DNA of 64,000 nucleotides from a virus (IMGVR_UViG_2974625740_000001:1-64000), one strand, 5' to 3'; shown: positions 49,800 through 56,661, counted from the stretch's first letter. Numbers and translations are program-made. The notes: generated from the sequence alone by a model not told the origin.

Positions 49800-50915
49800 G
49801 TGGGTGGCAAGCTTCTGGTAGTGGCCGGAGCCCAGTACGGTTCCGAGGCCAAGGGACACGTCGCTGACCAGCTCAGCCGACCGGCCGTCGCGAGTGACAA
49901 CGTGGTCGTCATGCGGGTGGCGGGACCGAACGCGGGTCACACCGTGTACGGCCTGTGCCCCAACGACTGCACCCCGGACGACTCGCACATGTCCGGCGAG
50001 AACTGGATCGGGCACCCGTGGCGGCTGCGCACCGTGCCGGTGGGGGCCGTCAGCAACCCCGATGCCGACCTGGTCATCGCCGCCGGTTCCGAGATCGACT
50101 ACAACGTGCTCATGTCGGAGGTCGTCGCGCTAGACGCCGCCGGATACAAGGTCAGCCAGCGGCTGGTCATCGACACCCAAGCGACGCTGCTCGAACCGCG
50201 TCACATCCAGGAGGAGGTCGACGCCAAGATCCAGGAGCGTCTCGGCTCCACCGCCAAGGGCATCGGGGCGGCTCGCGCCGACCGCATCTGGCGACTGGCC
50301 AAGACCTGGGGTGACCACATCCAAGACGAGGGCCGGATCGAGTCCGCCGAGTTCGTGCGGGGTCGGCTGGCCGACGGCGCTACGGTCGTGATCGAGGGGA
50401 CCCAGGGGTTCGGCCTCGGGCTGCACGCGGGTCACTACCCCCAGTGCACCTCGTCCGACTGCCGCGCGATCGACTTCCTGTCCATGGCTGGCCTCAGCCC
50501 GTGGATGCGCGAGGTCGACGAGTTCGGCGTCTGGCTGGCCGCCCGGGTCCGCCCGATCCGCGTGGCGGGCAACTCCGGCCCGATGAAGAACGAGACCACC
50601 TGGCAGGACCTGCGTCTGCCGGAGGAGTACACGACCGTGACCAAGAAGGTCCGGCGCGTGGGCGAGTGGGACGGCGAACTCGTCGCCCGCGCCGTGATCG
50701 CCAACGGCGGTGCTCCGGCCGTCCGGGTCGCGCTGACCATGGTCGACAGCATCTTCGACGAGATCCGCAACGCCGAGGGCATGTTCGACGACGTCGACTG
50801 GACGCACGAGGTTGCACCCCCGCTGCCCAAGATCGTGACCAACATCGAGCGCGAGATCGGGGCCCCGATCCGCATGATCACCACCTCGCCGACCACTGCC
50901 CTCTGGAGGCCGTGA
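49800..50915 (+). CDS. purZ: PurZ/PurZ0-like adenylosuccinate synthetase paralogue (2-aminoadenine pathway)
   Basis: GAQYGSEAKG (Ser at the PurA catalytic Asp position), PNAGHT, GSTAKGIG, VIEGTQG, YPQCTS, TTVTKKVRRVG, ALTMVD. Confidence 0.85.
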   Translation: MGGKLLVVAGAQYGSEAKGHVADQLSRPAVASDNVVVMRVAGPNAGHTVYGLCPNDCTPDDSHMSGENWIGHPWRLRTVPVGAVSNPDADLVIAAGSEIDYNVLMSEVVALDAAGYKVSQRLVIDTQATLLEPRHIQEEVDAKIQERLGSTAKGIGAARADRIWRLAKTWGDHIQDEGRIESAEFVRGRLADGATVVIEGTQGFGLGLHAGHYPQCTSSDCRAIDFLSMAGLSPWMREVDEFGVWLAARVRPIRVAGNSGPMKNETTWQDLRLPEEYTTVTKKVRRVGEWDGELVARAVIANGGAPAVRVALTMVDSIFDEIRNAEGMFDDVDWTHEVAPPLPKIVTNIEREIGAPIRMITTSPTTALWRP

Positions 50916-50917
50916 CC

Positions 50918-52177
50918 ATGGGTGCTGACTTCCACATCCACCTCCCCAAGCGGGACGACCCCGACCACTGCGGTCGCGAGGGGTGCGCCCGTCACTACAG
51001 CCACCCCGTCCACGCGCCCTCGGAGGCCCTCCGGAGGCTCTCGGAGCTGCCGCCGGACCTCCGCCCCCTGGAGCACCACGAGAGGGCTTCCGGAGCCCCC
51101 TACGTGCCCGCGCAGAGGGACGCGGCCCCCGCCACCCACACCGGCCGTCCGGCCATGCACCCGGGAACTACCATCCGGGTGGCCAAGATGGGCGAGCCGC
51201 AGCGCGACGCCACCCCCGCCGAAATCGCCGCGTACCTCAAGGCGAATCCGCACATGAACCAGGACCCCGACCTGTACTGCTCGCACCCCAACGGGTTCGG
51301 CCCGAACGGGTGCCCGTGCGGCAAGGGCCAGCCGGGTGAGGACGACCCCGAGACCGTGCGCAACATCGATACGGGCGAGGACGTTCCCGCCACCCGCTGC
51401 CCCGAGTGTCAGGAGGCGGTGCCGACCGACCAGCTCCTGGCGCACATGCGCGACGTCGAGGCGTCCGATCAGGAGGACATCGACGCGATGGCCGAGCTGC
51501 TCGGTCTGCCGACGCTGCCGCCCCCCAACATGACCATCAACACGGTCGGGGAGGACTCGCCCATCTGGGGTCGTCCGATCGGCTGCCCGGTTCGCGAGAG
51601 GGAGCTGGCCGAGGGTGTGCCTACCTCGTGCCCGGGTCGTGCTGGCCACACCAAGGGAACCATCCGGCGGCATCTCCAGACCGTTCACTCGTGGAACGGC
51701 GACCAGTGGAACGACTGGGCCGAGTCGGTCAACTTCCTGGAGCTGCCCAGCGTCCCGAAGTCCATCCTCGACGAGATGGAGGCCCTGGGGAAGCGCGTCG
51801 ACGCCTTCCTGGACCCTGACATCACGATGGAGCAGATCATGTCCGACGCGCAGCAGAACGGCACCGAGATCCTGACCGAGTGGTGGCTGAAGCGAGCCGC
51901 CGCAGAGGCCGAGGGCGTGGTGCCCAAGTCGATCGAGTACGGGTCGAACAGCCTGATGCAGCTCGGTCGCAAGATGGCCCAGCTCCAGGGTCGCGAGGTG
52001 TCCGAGGCCGAGGCCCTGGAACTCGGCTGCTGGGCCAACTGCATCCAGAAGATCGAGCGCTGGACGGACGCCGTGATGCGGGGTGAGCGTCCCTCGGACG
52101 ACACGATCCTCGACGCGGGGGTCTACCTCAAGATGGTCCAGCGCATCCGCGACTCGGGGTCCTGGCCCGGAGTCTGA
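50918..52177 (+). CDS. Cys/His-rich modules fused to C-terminal all-alpha MazG-like / nucleotide-modification domain
   Basis: Several CxxC/HxH clusters; C-terminus PKSIEYG...KIERW...PSDDTILDAGVYLKM. Confidence 0.5.
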   Translation: MGADFHIHLPKRDDPDHCGREGCARHYSHPVHAPSEALRRLSELPPDLRPLEHHERASGAPYVPAQRDAAPATHTGRPAMHPGTTIRVAKMGEPQRDATPAEIAAYLKANPHMNQDPDLYCSHPNGFGPNGCPCGKGQPGEDDPETVRNIDTGEDVPATRCPECQEAVPTDQLLAHMRDVEASDQEDIDAMAELLGLPTLPPPNMTINTVGEDSPIWGRPIGCPVRERELAEGVPTSCPGRAGHTKGTIRRHLQTVHSWNGDQWNDWAESVNFLELPSVPKSILDEMEALGKRVDAFLDPDITMEQIMSDAQQNGTEILTEWWLKRAAAEAEGVVPKSIEYGSNSLMQLGRKMAQLQGREVSEAEALELGCWANCIQKIERWTDAVMRGERPSDDTILDAGVYLKMVQRIRDSGSWPGV

Positions 52178-52249
52178 GTCAATCCGTCAATCCGAGCACA
52201 ACCAACGGCGGGGGTGGCGGTGCTGCCCCCGCCCGGCTGGAGGGCCGAC

Positions 52250-53128
52250 ATGAAGAACGACCGACTGATCTACCTGGCACACCCGATCGACATGGGCCGC
52301 GCGTGCCCCGACCTGCTCAACTACGCGGTCGGCGAACTCCAGGCCCTGGGCCTGCCGACGTACAACCCGCTGACCGCGTTCAACGTGAGCGGTCAGCCGT
52401 CTGGGGTGATCAACCGCGTGAACGAGGCCGCCATGCTCGCCAGCTCGGGGGCGGTGGCGTTCCTGCCGAAGGACACCCCGACCATCGGCACCCCGGCCGA
52501 GATCTCGTGGCTGATGACGCACGGCAAGCCGGTCCTGATCCTGACCGACATCGACACCTCATGGGTCGTCGCGGGCTGGCGCGGTCAGCTCTTCACCGAG
52601 GTGCACCATCTGGACGAGGAGGGCGTCAGCGCGGGCATCGACTGGCTGACCGACCGGATGTCGTACCTGGACGACAACCCCGAGTTCGGCGACGTCGAGC
52701 CGATCGTGTTCGAGAAGGCCAAGCAGGACGCCACTCTCCCGACCAAGGGGTACGCCGACGACGCCGGATACGACCTGTACGCCAGCGACGAGGTCGTCGT
52801 TCCGGCTCGGGGTCAGGCCACGGTGCCGCTCGGCGTCAAGGTGGACATCCCCGAGGGTCTGTGGGCCCAGATCACTGGCCGAAGCTCGACGCTCAAGAAC
52901 CTCAACCTGATGGTCGCCCCCACGGTCGGCGTGATCGACGAGGGGTACACGGGCGAGCTGTTCGCTCCCGTGGTCAGTAACGCGGACGAGGACGTGAAGA
53001 TCGAGCGCGGGCAGCGGATCGCCCAGCTCATCCTTCACGAGGCCCCGGGCCAGCGCTTCACGCCCGTGTGGGGCGTCGCCCGCCGGAAGGAGCGGGGAGC
53101 GAACGGCTTCGGATCTACCGGTCGCTGA
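52250..53128 (+). CDS. dut: Nucleoside deoxyribosyltransferase-like domain fused to trimeric dUTPase
   Basis: N-terminus IYLAHP, YNP, GTPAEI, GKPVLI; dUTPase motifs AGYDL, GRSS, GVIDEGYTGE, RIAQL, RGANGFGSTG. Confidence 0.85.
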   Translation: MKNDRLIYLAHPIDMGRACPDLLNYAVGELQALGLPTYNPLTAFNVSGQPSGVINRVNEAAMLASSGAVAFLPKDTPTIGTPAEISWLMTHGKPVLILTDIDTSWVVAGWRGQLFTEVHHLDEEGVSAGIDWLTDRMSYLDDNPEFGDVEPIVFEKAKQDATLPTKGYADDAGYDLYASDEVVVPARGQATVPLGVKVDIPEGLWAQITGRSSTLKNLNLMVAPTVGVIDEGYTGELFAPVVSNADEDVKIERGQRIAQLILHEAPGQRFTPVWGVARRKERGANGFGSTGR

Positions 53129-53138
53129 CCGCACCCGC

Positions 53139-53174
53139 CACGGCCCCCACCCAGCGCACAGGGTGGGGGCCGTG
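53139..53174 (+). terminator. Terminator-like hairpin after dut
   Basis: CACGGCCCCCACCC / GGGTGGGGGCCGTG 14-bp stem. Confidence 0.65.
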
Positions 53175-53276
53175 CGCTGTCTTCCGCCACCACGCGCCAC
53201 CCCTGTGCGCTCTTGTGCCGTTGCGGAGGGCGCAATTACCGTGGTAGTACAACTCCCGACCGGAGGTTTGAGCACC

Positions 53277-53468
53277 GTGGTTCTGAACGTTGACGACTGG
53301 GTGGAGACAAAAAACGGCAACATCGCGTTGGTGGTCGCTCGCAAGAGCCGACGCGTGGTCACCCTGTACACGATCGAAGATCACGAGCTGCACGAGGACG
53401 TCAGCGTCGACGTGATCAGCGGGTGTTTTCCGAACGTGTACAGGTTGCGCAACGCGGCCCCCGTATGA
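53277..53468 (+). CDS. Small hypothetical protein
   Basis: GGAGG RBS; lower GC. Confidence 0.4.
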   Translation: MVLNVDDWVETKNGNIALVVARKSRRVVTLYTIEDHELHEDVSVDVISGCFPNVYRLRNAAPV

Positions 53469-53555
53469 TTTAATCGCCGATCGGATCCCGCTTGTCCCAA
53501 CGGCAACAGGGTGGTACACTTGTGCCCAGTTGCAAGAGACCTGGAGGGCTCCCCG

Positions 53556-53801
53556 GTGGTTACCGCTGTGATTGTACTGGCGACGTTGATCGCTCTCGTA
53601 CTCATCGTCATGGGTTTCGTGTCGGTGTTTCGCGAGCAGACCATGCGCACGCCCTGGTTTTACTGGACCTGGGCGGTCGTCGCCGTCCTGATCATGTCGA
53701 TGCTGATCGACCTGCCGATGTGGGTCAGGGTCGCCAACTTCGTCGTCCTGCTGGCGTCCGCCGTCCTGTGGACCCGGGACATCAAGGAGGTCGCCCGATG
53801 A
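53556..53801 (+). CDS. Membrane protein (3 TM)
   Basis: Hydrophobic; follows promoter at 53490. Confidence 0.55.
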   Translation: MVTAVIVLATLIALVLIVMGFVSVFREQTMRTPWFYWTWAVVAVLIMSMLIDLPMWVRVANFVVLLASAVLWTRDIKEVAR

Positions 53802-54097
53802 GCGACGTTCAGCAGCGGATCTTTGAGGACATCCGCAACGAGAGAGCGGCCCAAGACCTCAAGTGGGGCAAGCAGATGCACCCCAACGGCACGTCGATCC
53901 GGTTCAAGCCGATGGCCGACGCTGCCCGGAACGCCACCCGCAAGGCCGACGCGAACAACCAGCAGACGTGGACCAACATCCTGCGCGAGGAGTTCTGGGA
54001 GGCCCTGTCGGAAACCGACCGCGCGGCCCTGCGCGCCGAGCTGATCCAGGTCGGTGCCGTGGTCGTCGCGTGGGTCGAGTGCCTCGACGAGAGCTGA
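53798..54097 (+). CDS. MazG-like nucleotide pyrophosphohydrolase
   Basis: ERAAQDLKWG...WTNILREEFWEA...LRAELIQVGAVVVAW. Confidence 0.7.
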   Translation: MSDVQQRIFEDIRNERAAQDLKWGKQMHPNGTSIRFKPMADAARNATRKADANNQQTWTNILREEFWEALSETDRAALRAELIQVGAVVVAWVECLDES

Positions 54098-54230
54098 CCG
54101 CCACCCCCCCCTGACGCCCCCTCACCCAAATTCCCGCGCTCCGGTCCGGGTGAGGGGGCTCACGCTTGCCCGGGTGATTGCGCTGCGAGCAAGTCCCATG
54201 GTAGGATAAGCTCGGAATAAGGAGGTGCAC

Positions 54231-54593
54231 ATGCACCGTTGGGAATACGCCGTCGGCCACCAGAGGCTCGACGACACGTGGACCAACGACACGGACCCGG
54301 CCACGTTCGAAGTCGCGCGCCGTGATCTGATCATCCAGCAGATCCAGCACGGTGACGAGGACTGGGCACACGATCTGCGCGTCATCAAGCGCGGTGACCA
54401 CCAGCTCGACTGGACCCCGGTGTACGACCACGCGGCCGAGTTGCTGGTGGAGGTCCTGGAGGGCGTCCGGCTCGACTTCGCCACGATCGGCTCGGGGATC
54501 GTCCAGGGCAGCGACGTCGCCCGGATCTTCAAGAAGCGTGCCCAGGTCCTTCGTAACACCCTGCCCAACCAGAACCAGGAGTACGACTCGTGA
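54231..54593 (+). CDS. Hypothetical protein
   Basis: AAGGAGG RBS; promoter at 54177. Confidence 0.55.
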   Translation: MHRWEYAVGHQRLDDTWTNDTDPATFEVARRDLIIQQIQHGDEDWAHDLRVIKRGDHQLDWTPVYDHAAELLVEVLEGVRLDFATIGSGIVQGSDVARIFKKRAQVLRNTLPNQNQEYDS

Positions 54594-55183
54594 CGTACCA
54601 TCACTACATCAAGCTCATGAGAGACGCGTCGGTCCCGCTCGACAACGTCATCCATCGGCTGACGGACGAGGGCCACGCCCTCACCCTCCGCCGGACGCAG
54701 GTCACGTTCGACCAGGCCAACATCTTCGTCACGCCGCATCCGGACGACCGGGACGTCGTTTTCGGCGTGTACATCGAGGAGTTCAGCAAGGCCGGATGGG
54801 CGTACGGGTCGCAGACGGCCCCCGCCAGCGAGGACCCCGCGCGCCCCGTGATCTCGATGTCGTTCGGGCACCCGCGCACCAAGACCCGGCTGGGTGAGCG
54901 TCCGCCGATCCGGCCCCGGGCCATCGGGTTCGAGATCCCGATGCCGGACCCGTCGCTGCCGATCACCACGGACCTGATCGAGTACTACGCCCAGCGCGCG
55001 GCCGACATCACCCGGGGCCTGATGGCGCAGCAGGTCGTCGACGAAGAGGGCAAGATGCCCGGCACCCCGGGCCAGGGCGGACCGCAGTTCAGGTCGCCCG
55101 ACTGGCAGCCCACCGTGACCAAGGTCGAGCCCAGGCCGCTGAACGAGATCTTCAACGACGAGGACGAGGAGGACGACGCGTGA
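54590..55183 (+). CDS. Hypothetical protein
   Basis: GTGA overlap; codon bias. Confidence 0.55.
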   Translation: MTYHHYIKLMRDASVPLDNVIHRLTDEGHALTLRRTQVTFDQANIFVTPHPDDRDVVFGVYIEEFSKAGWAYGSQTAPASEDPARPVISMSFGHPRTKTRLGERPPIRPRAIGFEIPMPDPSLPITTDLIEYYAQRAADITRGLMAQQVVDEEGKMPGTPGQGGPQFRSPDWQPTVTKVEPRPLNEIFNDEDEEDDA

Positions 55184-55287
55184 ACGTGCTGGCCGCGTTC
55201 GCCATCAGCCTGGCGGGGTTGGGGTTCGCCCTGGCCCTGCTGGGCTGGCACGGATGGAAGTTTCTCGCACCCCAAGGAGCGTGCTAA
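55180..55287 (+). CDS. Small membrane peptide
   Basis: GTGA overlap; MNVLAAFAISLAGLGFALALLGWHGWKFLAPQGAC; stop abuts purB start. Confidence 0.45.
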   Translation: MNVLAAFAISLAGLGFALALLGWHGWKFLAPQGAC

Positions 55288-56661
55288 GTGCAAACCGAAC
55301 TCGACCGATACACCACCCCCCAGATGGACACCATCTGGTCACCGGACTGGAAGCTCCGGCGGTGGGCCGAGATCGAGCTGGCCGCTGCGGAGGCCCTCGG
55401 TGCCCCCTCGGAGGCCCTCGCGCAGATCAGCCGGGCATCGGTCCCGTCGGCGCAGGCCGTGGCCACGGAGGAGGCCACGACGCGCCACGACGTGATCGCC
55501 TTCCTGAACCTCTGGCGCACGGGCATGGGCCCGGAGGGTCGGGCCTGGTCGCACAAGGGCCTGACCAGCTCGGACGTCGTCGACACCGCGAACGCCCTCC
55601 GCATGAAGGCCAGCACCGACGCCATCCGCGTGAACCTGGGTCGGCTGTCCAAGGCGGTCGGCCAGAACGCCCTCCTGTACAAGGACGCGGTCCGGGTCGG
55701 TCGCACCCACGGTCAACACGCGGAGGTCACAACGTGGGGGTGGCGGCTGGCCGTTTCGTTCTACGACCTTCAGCGCGCCGAGCGGCGGCTGTCGATGCTG
55801 GCCGAGCTGTACGAGGTCGGCAAGCTGTCGGGACCGGTCGGCGACTACAAGTCGATGACCCCGGCGGCTGAGCTGACCGCGCTTCAGGGCCTGGGCCTGC
55901 GACCGGCCGGAGCCACCACCCAGGTGGTCACCCGGGACGTCTACGTCGACTACCTGCACGCTCTCGCGCAGATCGCCAACGTGGTCGAGTCGCTGGCGCT
56001 GGAGATCCGGCTGTCCTCGCGGTCCGAGGTCGCCGAGATGCGCGAGGGCTTCAGCTCCGGCCAACGCGGTTCGTCGGCGATGCCGCACAAGCGGAACCCG
56101 ATCGGGTCGGAACAGCTCTGCGGACTCGCCCGGCTGGTGCGGGCTCAGGTGGAACCGGTCGCGCAGGGGGTGGCGTTGCACCACGAGCGCGACATCTCGC
56201 ACTCGTCGGTCGAGCGGGTCGCGTTGTCCACCGCCAGCCGCGTGGTCGACTACATGCTCGAAACCGCCACCGCCCTCGTTAACAACCTGCGGGTCGACGT
56301 CGACCGGATGCGCGCGAACGTGGTCGATAACCCGAGCCTGCTCAGCTCGCTGATCAAGAACGCGCTGACCGAGCAGCACAACATCGACCCGCACTGGGCG
56401 TACGAGGTCGTGTTCTACGGGTTCGAGGACTGGGGTCGGCCGGACCACGGCGGGTTCGACACGCTGGCCGACGCCCTGGCCGACGCGTGGTACCGGCTGG
56501 CCGAGACGCAGCACCTCGACGCGCACGTCCCGGGCCTCGACTTCGAGGACCTGGTGGCCATCGGGGACGACATCACGACGCTGACCGGCGGGACTGACCC
56601 CGTGTTCAAGGAGATCGAGTTCCTGATCAGCGACCAGAAGGGCGACCCGTCCGCCTGGTGA
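55288..56661 (+). CDS. purB: Adenylosuccinate lyase
   Basis: RYTTPQMDTIWS, TRHDVIAF, HKGLTSSDVVD, GRTHGQHAE, signature GSSAMPHKRNP, HERDISHSSVER. Confidence 0.95.
   Translation: MQTELDRYTTPQMDTIWSPDWKLRRWAEIELAAAEALGAPSEALAQISRASVPSAQAVATEEATTRHDVIAFLNLWRTGMGPEGRAWSHKGLTSSDVVDTANALRMKASTDAIRVNLGRLSKAVGQNALLYKDAVRVGRTHGQHAEVTTWGWRLAVSFYDLQRAERRLSMLAELYEVGKLSGPVGDYKSMTPAAELTALQGLGLRPAGATTQVVTRDVYVDYLHALAQIANVVESLALEIRLSSRSEVAEMREGFSSGQRGSSAMPHKRNPIGSEQLCGLARLVRAQVEPVAQGVALHHERDISHSSVERVALSTASRVVDYMLETATALVNNLRVDVDRMRANVVDNPSLLSSLIKNALTEQHNIDPHWAYEVVFYGFEDWGRPDHGGFDTLADALADAWYRLAETQHLDAHVPGLDFEDLVAIGDDITTLTGGTDPVFKEIEFLISDQKGDPSAW

Follow-up and report, generated by a model that had tools for sequence, protein, structure and literature searches.

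In phages with 2-aminoadenine (Z) genomes the synthetase is a paralogue of PurA, either the ATP-type PurZ or PurZ0, and the dATPase DatZ belongs to the PurZ phages (PMC12884076). The enzymes DutZ, DmtZ and DUF5664-1 have been characterised from PurZ0 phages such as Wayne and Ghobes (Poubanne et al., Nucleic Acids Research 2026, PMC12884076): of 98 PurZ0 genomes surveyed, dutZ is present in all 98 and dmtZ in 85, with the two genes fused in 77 of these 85. The protein of Wayne is such a DmtZ-DutZ fusion; its dUTPase half cuts dATP, dGTP and dUTP to the monophosphates, and its NDT half turns dAMP into adenine and can move the deoxyribose-5-phosphate onto the Z base (Poubanne et al., PMC12884076). 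The lyase step is given to the host PurB in the literature that we searched, with the supplement of PMC12884076 allowing 'or uncharacterized phage proteins' for it. Here we analyse a block of genes at positions 49,800 to 56,661 of a 64,000-nucleotide stretch of viral DNA (the window), which corresponds to positions 1-64,000 of an IMG/VR record of 83,219 bp (IMGVR_UViG_2974625740_000001; CheckV completeness 100%). We read this block as a PurZ0-type Z-DNA pathway, with a probability of about 0.85. From family membership and the conservation of catalytic residues, both of which can be read directly, we infer the enzyme activities and the presence of Z in virion DNA.

The window has a G+C content of 65-69% and the source phage is a Streptomyces siphovirus of about 83 kb, related to Spocter, Keanu and Galactica. 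Spocter (82.7 kb, PQ114745) has 97.7% DNA identity across the block and the same gene order, Keanu (MT723933) has 84% identity across the same positions, and Galactica (MT316461) has a DNA-level match in the PurB gene only (83%), with PurZ0 and the family A DNA polymerase (PolA) matched at the protein level. Relatives of the source phage are therefore already deposited and annotated, and the pathway itself is already described, its logic having been published between 2023 and 2026. In GenBank, all three relatives have PurA-like and PurB-like annotations; for Spocter, the products annotated within the block are 'PurA-like adenylosuccinate synthetase', 'deoxyuridine triphosphatase' and 'PurB-like adenylosuccinate lyase'. 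In the records of all three the genes for the 421-amino-acid and the 99-amino-acid protein are entered as 'hypothetical protein', and no name is given to the NDT half of the fusion. The main features, all on the plus strand, are the following (evidence in brackets):

49800 to 50915, plus strand: gp49800, 371 amino acids, predicted N6-succino-2-amino-2'-deoxyadenylate synthase PurZ0, GTP-type branch (NF038379, 7VF6, tree, Ser15/Asp316)
50912 to 52177, plus strand: gp50912, 421 amino acids, zinc-finger-like N-terminus and PurZ0-adjacent helical domain (homology, synteny, AlphaFold2)
51863 to 52174, plus strand: the helical domain, C-terminal ~105 amino acids of gp50912 (AlphaFold2, relatives, synteny)
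52214 to 53128, plus strand: gp52214, predicted DmtZ-DutZ fusion (dUTPase, Nuc_deoxyrib_tr, TIGR00576, Wayne alignment)
53798 to 54097, plus strand: gp53798, 99-amino-acid four-helix protein with acidic motifs (phrog_2831 of unknown function, AlphaFold2, alignment)
55288 to 56661, plus strand: gp55288, phage adenylosuccinate lyase PurB of the short bacterial type (TIGR00928, 1C3U, clade of phage contigs)
42532 to 44910, plus strand: family A DNA polymerase, upstream of the block (tblastn to the Wayne-like DpoZ PolAs)

The order PolA ... PurZ0, helical-domain gene, NDT-dUTPase ... PurB recurs in the independent contigs L009, L186, L187 and L188 and in 18 IMG/VR loci with long flanks.

Synthetase, fused pool enzyme and lyase

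gp49800 is a homologue of PurA (Pfam PF00709, E-value 3e-33; phrog_1211, 9e-82). It scores 374 bits with the NCBIfam model NF038379 ('succino-amino-deoxyadenylate synthase PurZ', cut-off 300) and fails all PurA equivalog models, with 185, 132 and 108 bits versus cut-offs of 368-402. Of the solved structures, 7VF6 (PurZ0 of the Gordonia phage Archimedes) ranks first with 1e-83, followed by an archaeal PurA (1.5e-31), the PurZ of phiVC8 (7e-23) and the PurZ of S-2L (3e-15). When a maximum-likelihood tree is rooted with E. coli PurA, PurA is split from PurZ plus PurZ0 with a support of 100/100; the ATP-type PurZ enzymes form a clade of their own (100/100) and gp49800 is placed among the PurZ0 sequences and not with this clade. 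Its identity is 42-49% to PurZ0 versus 30-33% to PurZ.

The catalytic residues agree with this placement: the P-loop of gp49800 reads GAQYGSEAKG versus GTQWGDEGKG in E. coli PurA, with Ser replacing the catalytic Asp13, and its loop LTMVD retains the guanine-binding Asp (Asp316; compare LTKLD in E. coli and VTMLD in the archaeal PurA of P. horikoshii), where ATP-type PurZ enzymes have an Asn (LNFCN). Ser15 and Asp316 are invariant across 27 PurZ0 relatives. Judged from its sequence, gp49800 is a PurZ0, and GTP is probably its phosphate donor.

A side observation concerns a 17-amino-acid insertion with two Cys, LCPNDCTPDDSHMSGENW, at residues ~52-69 of gp49800 (positions 49950-50010), directly following the NAGHT motif. 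Among eight aligned proteins, only the metagenomic relative in contig L009 shares this insertion; it is absent from Wayne, Ghobes, Archimedes and the ATP-type PurZ.

gp52214 has Pfam matches to dUTPase (6e-27) and Nuc_deoxyrib_tr (4e-5) and its C-terminal trimeric-dUTPase domain passes TIGR00576 (108 bits, cut-off 102.6). It aligns collinearly and from end to end with the 306-amino-acid DmtZ-DutZ of Wayne (32% identity, 6e-40). The catalytic triad of NDT enzymes is, in Ghobes numbering, Tyr6/Asn77/Glu103. Tyr6, Asp12, Pro57, Asn77, Glu103 and Trp124 of Ghobes DmtZ have been mutated or modelled (PMC12884076) and correspond to Y20, D26, P52, N70, E96 and W117 of gp52214; all six key residues are thus kept. 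By alignment, gp52214 is a full-length orthologue of Wayne DmtZ-DutZ, with a predicted dAMP hydrolase / deoxyribose-5-phosphate transferase of the NDT family as its N-terminal half and a predicted dATP/dGTP/dUTP diphosphatase as its C-terminal half. Translation of gp52214 probably begins at the ATG at 52250 (compare the start annotated in Spocter).

gp55288 passes the purB equivalog model TIGR00928 (335 bits, cut-off 326). Aligned with the adenylosuccinate lyase of T. maritima (1C3U, 4e-76), it has kept the TRHDV, GRTHGQHAE and GQRGSSAMPHKRNP segments, and the two catalytic His and the Ser-loop (GSSAMPHKRNP) are in register; by the conservation of these residues it is a catalytically intact PurB. 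The alignment stops at residue 373 of 457 and the last ~85 amino acids have diverged. The phage clade to which gp55288 belongs has only PF00206 on record and lacks the C-terminal ADSL domain PF10397, as do some cellular PurBs. In the PurB tree, this clade comprises some 20 sequences on contigs of phage size (99 in the Shimodaira-Hasegawa-like approximate likelihood ratio test) and stands beside the short-type bacterial PurBs.

The source phage is not alone in having a PurB, as the Gordonia PurZ0 phages have an annotated PurB-like gene. However, the 'PurB-like' proteins of Ghobes and Archimedes (365-377 amino acids) are set apart in the tree by a very long branch, and the idea that they form one recent lineage with gp55288 was rejected for this reason. 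Their genes (Archimedes and Ghobes; L005:5078-6175 and L006:2090-3223, both on the minus strand) encode proteins with a Pfam Lyase_1 match of only 1e-9 and a distance of ~5.8 substitutions per site from other PurBs, which suggests that their lyase function is less certain than the annotation.

How frequently PurZ0 is accompanied by a lyase was read from 80 viral PurZ0 loci of IMG/VR, the best 80 of 446 matches; about 37 of these (L022-L058) resemble one freshwater lineage and the number of independent lineages is around ten. Of the 80 loci, 31 have a PurB homologue no more than 10 kb from PurZ0; among the 38 loci with 8 kb or more upstream, the count is 20. One lineage of PurZ0 contigs (L074, L075, L081-L083, L085, L087, L088 and L093) has PurB within the operon, in the order PurZ0, helical-domain gene, PurB, DmtZ, DutZ within ~3 kb.

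In the pathway that we propose, the DutZ half of gp52214 would cut dATP, dGTP and dUTP to monophosphates, depleting dATP and supplying dGMP, and the DmtZ half would split dAMP to adenine and deoxyribose-5-phosphate and may move the sugar phosphate to the free Z base. gp49800 would then join dGMP and aspartate, probably with GTP, to N6-succino-2-amino-dAMP (dSMP), from which gp55288 would release fumarate, leaving the monophosphate of Z (dZMP). Guanylate kinase (Gmk) and NDK of the host would convert dZMP to the triphosphate dZTP, to be incorporated by a PolA distantly related to the Wayne-like DpoZ.

The genes that are absent fit this picture. In the complete 83,219-bp genome, the HD model PF01966 gives nothing at E ≤ 10 but matches every control genome; DUF5664 (PF18909), DUF550 (PF04447), MazG, PRA-PH and DUF1599 are likewise unmatched at E ≤ 10, the guanylate kinase and NDK models are unmatched at E ≤ 1, and BLAST searches with phiVC8 DatZ, phiVC8 p23 and DMU1 gp38-40 return nothing real. 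The absence of DatZ/HD, DUF550 and DUF5664 agrees with the published PurZ0 gene set.

An initial annotation of this DNA had proposed a PurZ0-like synthetase with Ser in place of the catalytic Asp and a retained guanine-loop Asp, an NDT-dUTPase fusion, a complete phage PurB and the removal of dATP and dAMP by enzymes other than DatZ. These points were borne out: both residues are as described, NF038379 and the tree place the synthetase outside PurA and on the PurZ0 side, the fusion and the lyase are supported by their models and alignments, and the lack of DatZ extends to the whole genome, with the encoded DmtZ-DutZ as the predicted alternative. Two broader claims have to be given up. The pathway is not self-contained: neither Gmk nor NDK is encoded, so that the conversion of dZMP to dZTP depends on host kinases. 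Nor is it a variant architecture, as PurZ0 with DutZ/DmtZ and without DatZ is the published set of PurZ0 phages (PMC12884076).

The helical domain next to PurZ0

The gene that follows PurZ0 encodes gp50912; searches of Pfam, PHROG and NCBIfam found no match for it, also at the loose threshold of E ≤ 10. Its N-terminal ~300 amino acids are variable and contain four zinc-finger-like Cys/His modules, including CSHPNGFGPNGCPC and a C2H2-like C...C...HLQTVH. The C-terminal helical domain is modelled by AlphaFold2 as four helices (predicted local distance difference test, pLDDT, 91) and has the invariant residues W, K, Y-G, E, K, R, D, D and Y. A library at 50% identity contains 775 relatives of the domain, which belongs to no Pfam family. 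It is homologous to gp51 of Ghobes and gp51 of Archimedes (E ~1e-23; with a profile, 1e-39 and 2e-40), which are both encoded directly 3' of PurZ0; in other contigs the domain is located at L005:13598-13984, L006:11771-12334, L010:1946-2245 and L186:5001-5747.

The association with PurZ0 is close to complete. Of the 80 viral loci, 78 encode the helical domain directly after PurZ0, and in 77 both have the same orientation; the matches to the two are separated by a median of 90 bp. In the remaining two loci, those of Arthrobacter phages of the Wayne type, DUF5664-1 stands in this position, and the two families are mutually exclusive. P0055, from two independent samples, is a Ser-type PurZ0 with the domain fused to its C-terminus; in P0233 it is present as a tandem duplicate, two genes upstream of DmtZ. 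The association also holds when the search starts from the domain proteins and looks outwards, over seven assembly contexts: in L186, L187 and L188 alike, the domain gene directly follows a PurZ-like gene, an NDT-dUTPase is encoded downstream and there is a lyase in the vicinity, and L014 likewise has PurZ0 upstream. The helical domain thus very probably belongs to the PurZ0 pathway. Poubanne et al. (PMC12884076) annotated Z-genomes by best Pfam hit, and the family is missing from their gene sets because it has no Pfam model.

As to its role, our best guess is either a partner of PurZ0 or an enzyme of the nucleotide pool, standing where the Arthrobacter phages have DUF5664. For a bolder proposal we see even odds: that the domain is an overlooked core part of the PurZ0 pathway, as subunit, regulator or new pool enzyme replacing DUF5664-1, and that the phage PurB clade is a dedicated dSMP lyase.

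The domain could also be a true homologue of DUF5664-1, that is, a very divergent dNTP pyrophosphohydrolase of the DUF5664/MazG type. This would explain why it has the position of DUF5664 in the Wayne-type phages and excludes it (78 versus 2 of the 80 loci), and it would suit an all-helical domain of ~100 amino acids with conserved K, E and D; in the ESM Atlas, there is in addition a lead to DUF1599/Nmad1, found in 14% of one neighbouring cluster. However, this lead was not confirmed, as the Pfam model is negative on the genome at the generous threshold given above, as is that of DUF5664. A profile-profile comparison (hhalign) of the helical domain with an alignment of 63 DUF5664 sequences gave a probability of 0.1%, the comparison with the DUF5664 of Wayne alone was negative, and the helical-domain profile matches nothing in the genomes of Wayne, DMU1 and phiVC8. 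Foldseek searches of the PDB and VIA searches with the AlphaFold2 models of this domain and of gp53798 returned generic helical matches (best Z 7.0 and 6.8), with no MazG-like fold prominent among the PDB matches of the helical domain. Common descent with DUF5664 is therefore unlikely. The initial annotation had labelled the gene at 50912-52177 a MazG/Nmad-like fusion, a label that no hidden Markov model (HMM) or fold search supports.

The same annotation had called the gene at 53798-54097 a MazG-like enzyme. Its product, gp53798, is predicted by AlphaFold2 as a four-helix bundle (pLDDT 95) and has the conserved motifs ER..Q..KWG.Q.HP.GT, ILREE..EA and LR.ELIQV. Relatives are found in the group of the source phage only, plus some Streptomyces proteins; there is a homologue in contig L009 and none in the 80 IMG/VR PurZ0 loci. 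What speaks for the MazG label is the EExxE-type motif and a language-model lead, in the ESM Atlas, to MazG and PRA-PH clusters (score 0.89-0.90). All other searches were negative: gp53798 has no match in Pfam or NCBIfam, including the MazG and PRA-PH HMMs, a profile search and fold searches of the PDB gave nothing significant, and hhalign of its profile found no relationship to DUF5664-DUF550 of DMU1, phiVC8 p23, the helical domain or DUF5664. The motif and the Atlas lead would fit an all-alpha NTP pyrophosphatase, for which gp53798 is a possible candidate.

Further small genes lie between the pathway genes:

53163 to 55183, plus strand: proteins of 101 amino acids, 96 amino acids (membrane protein), 122 amino acids and 197 amino acids

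None has a Pfam or PHROG match. They share the orientation of the pathway genes, which by itself is no support for membership in the pathway; weak homologues of the 101-, 96- and 197-amino-acid proteins are present in the syntenic contig L009.

The polymerase and alternative readings

Upstream of the block is the gene of a PolA. In a tblastn search of about 50,000 phage records, its best matches outside its own cluster are to the Wayne-like DpoZ, the Z-specific PolA of PurZ0 phages, from phages of Arthrobacter (identity 27-28%, E ~1e-53); the matches to Wayne (4e-58) and Ghobes (7e-47) are much better than those to DMU1 (2e-10) and phiVC8 (0.002). Its motif B reads RSAAKRGTFGIIYLG (...FGIIYLG) versus R..AKR.NFSLIFG in Wayne, Ghobes, Archimedes and Goodman. 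The Phe of this motif (position B4) is the only substitution common to both groups of DpoZ (PMC10201439). With a Tyr instead of this Phe, the PolA was not filed as a DpoZ; it may represent a third lineage of PolA associated with Z clusters.

Two observations on the polymerase region can be added. The IMG/VR loci L017 and L019-L021 have PolAs of 55-67% identity adjoining PurZ0. Two syntenic contigs have a gene of 130-146 amino acids with a match to Pfam PF26761 (Acb5) between PolA and PurZ0 (L009:3173-3565 and L188:1599-2039); its counterpart in the source phage would be expected at ~47.7-48.2 kb.

Several points weigh against a Z-DNA pathway in the source phage. The PolA has a Tyr at the position of the DpoZ Phe and is just 27-28% identical to the Wayne-like DpoZ, so that Z-selectivity of the polymerase is not implied. 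The preference of gp55288 for dSMP is putative. A literature search gave no publication on the DNA chemistry of Spocter, Keanu or Galactica. Finally, the use of GTP by PurZ0 is known from one characterised enzyme, and sources disagree on the donor. The paper on the PurZ0 structure reportedly gives GTP. A preprint also states that PurZ0 uses GTP (10.1101/2025.10.22.683976), and one sentence in PMC12884076 has the ATP/GTP preferences of PurZ0 and PurZ in the opposite order; this 'respectively' sentence is apparently reversed, as it clashes with the introduction of the same paper and with the preprint.

In another reading the pathway is active but the replacement of A by Z is only partial, or the Z nucleotides serve another use, because the polymerase is not Z-selective and there is no DatZ. 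The Tyr in motif B, the low identity to DpoZ-1 and the HD search, which left the genome without a triphosphohydrolase, all favour it. On the other hand, the replacement of A is complete in S-2L, which has no DpoZ (PMC10201439), DutZ and DmtZ of Wayne and Ghobes remove dATP and dAMP efficiently in vitro (PMC12884076), and Wayne and Ghobes are within the group reported as Z-genome phages. We consider partial replacement or another use improbable.

The remaining alternative, an auxiliary purine metabolism in which a PurA-like enzyme and PurB boost AMP and dATP during infection and the DNA stays canonical, could appeal to PurA and PurB being successive steps of AMP synthesis and to phages with a bona fide purB but no PurZ, such as the Microcystis phage MaAM05, but we dismiss it as an ordinary PurA/PurB pair on the PurZ versus PurA model scores: the catalytic Asp, with a conservation of 99% among true PurA enzymes (PMC12884076), is missing from gp49800, which passes the PurZ model and fails every PurA cut-off, and a phage that raises the AMP supply would have no use for the neighbouring DmtZ-DutZ, an enzyme predicted to destroy dATP and dAMP.

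Comparison with known Z-genome phages

The locus bears on the published gene sets in two ways. PurZ0 gene sets built on Pfam miss a family that nearly always adjoins PurZ0 and is sometimes fused to it, and the lyase step is given to the host in the literature searched, yet ~40% of the viral PurZ0 loci have their own PurB. Both the helical domain and the phage PurB are relevant to rebuilding Z-DNA synthesis in heterologous hosts.

The more distant comparison is with the phages of the PurZ/DatZ/MazZ type: the cyanophage S-2L, the Vibrio phage phiVC8 and the Acinetobacter phage SH-Ab 15497. Like these, the source phage would make dZMP from dGMP via a PurA paralogue and a lyase and would remove dATP. 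However, its synthetase is on the other side of a 100/100 split, with ~30-33% identity, and the guanine-loop residue of theirs is Asn; HD-type DatZ, DUF550/MazZ and a phiVC8-like DpoZ are all absent from the source phage.

Far closer are the PurZ0 clusters of Wayne, Ghobes and Archimedes. They share a PurZ0 with Ser for Asp and a retained guanine-loop Asp (42-49% identity), the absence of DatZ and an upstream PolA probably of the same broad lineage; with Wayne the source phage also shares the fusion of DmtZ and DutZ with all key residues, and with Ghobes and Archimedes a homologous gene after PurZ0 (gp51) and, in these Gordonia phages, the presence of a PurB-like gene. The differences are mostly in the accessory parts. 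The source phage has no DUF5664, unlike Wayne; its helical domain bears a zinc-finger-like N-terminal extension of ~300 amino acids that gp51 of Ghobes and Archimedes does not have, and its PurB is full, scores with TIGR00928 and forms a clade separate from the divergent 365-377-amino-acid PurB-like proteins of the Gordonia phages. Its PolA has Tyr and not Phe in motif B and there is an extra helical protein of 99 amino acids. The host is Streptomyces and, at 83 kb versus 43-45 kb, the genome is twice as large: with the source phage as a candidate Z-genome, the PurZ0 phages extend to a third actinobacterial host genus and to a much larger type of genome.

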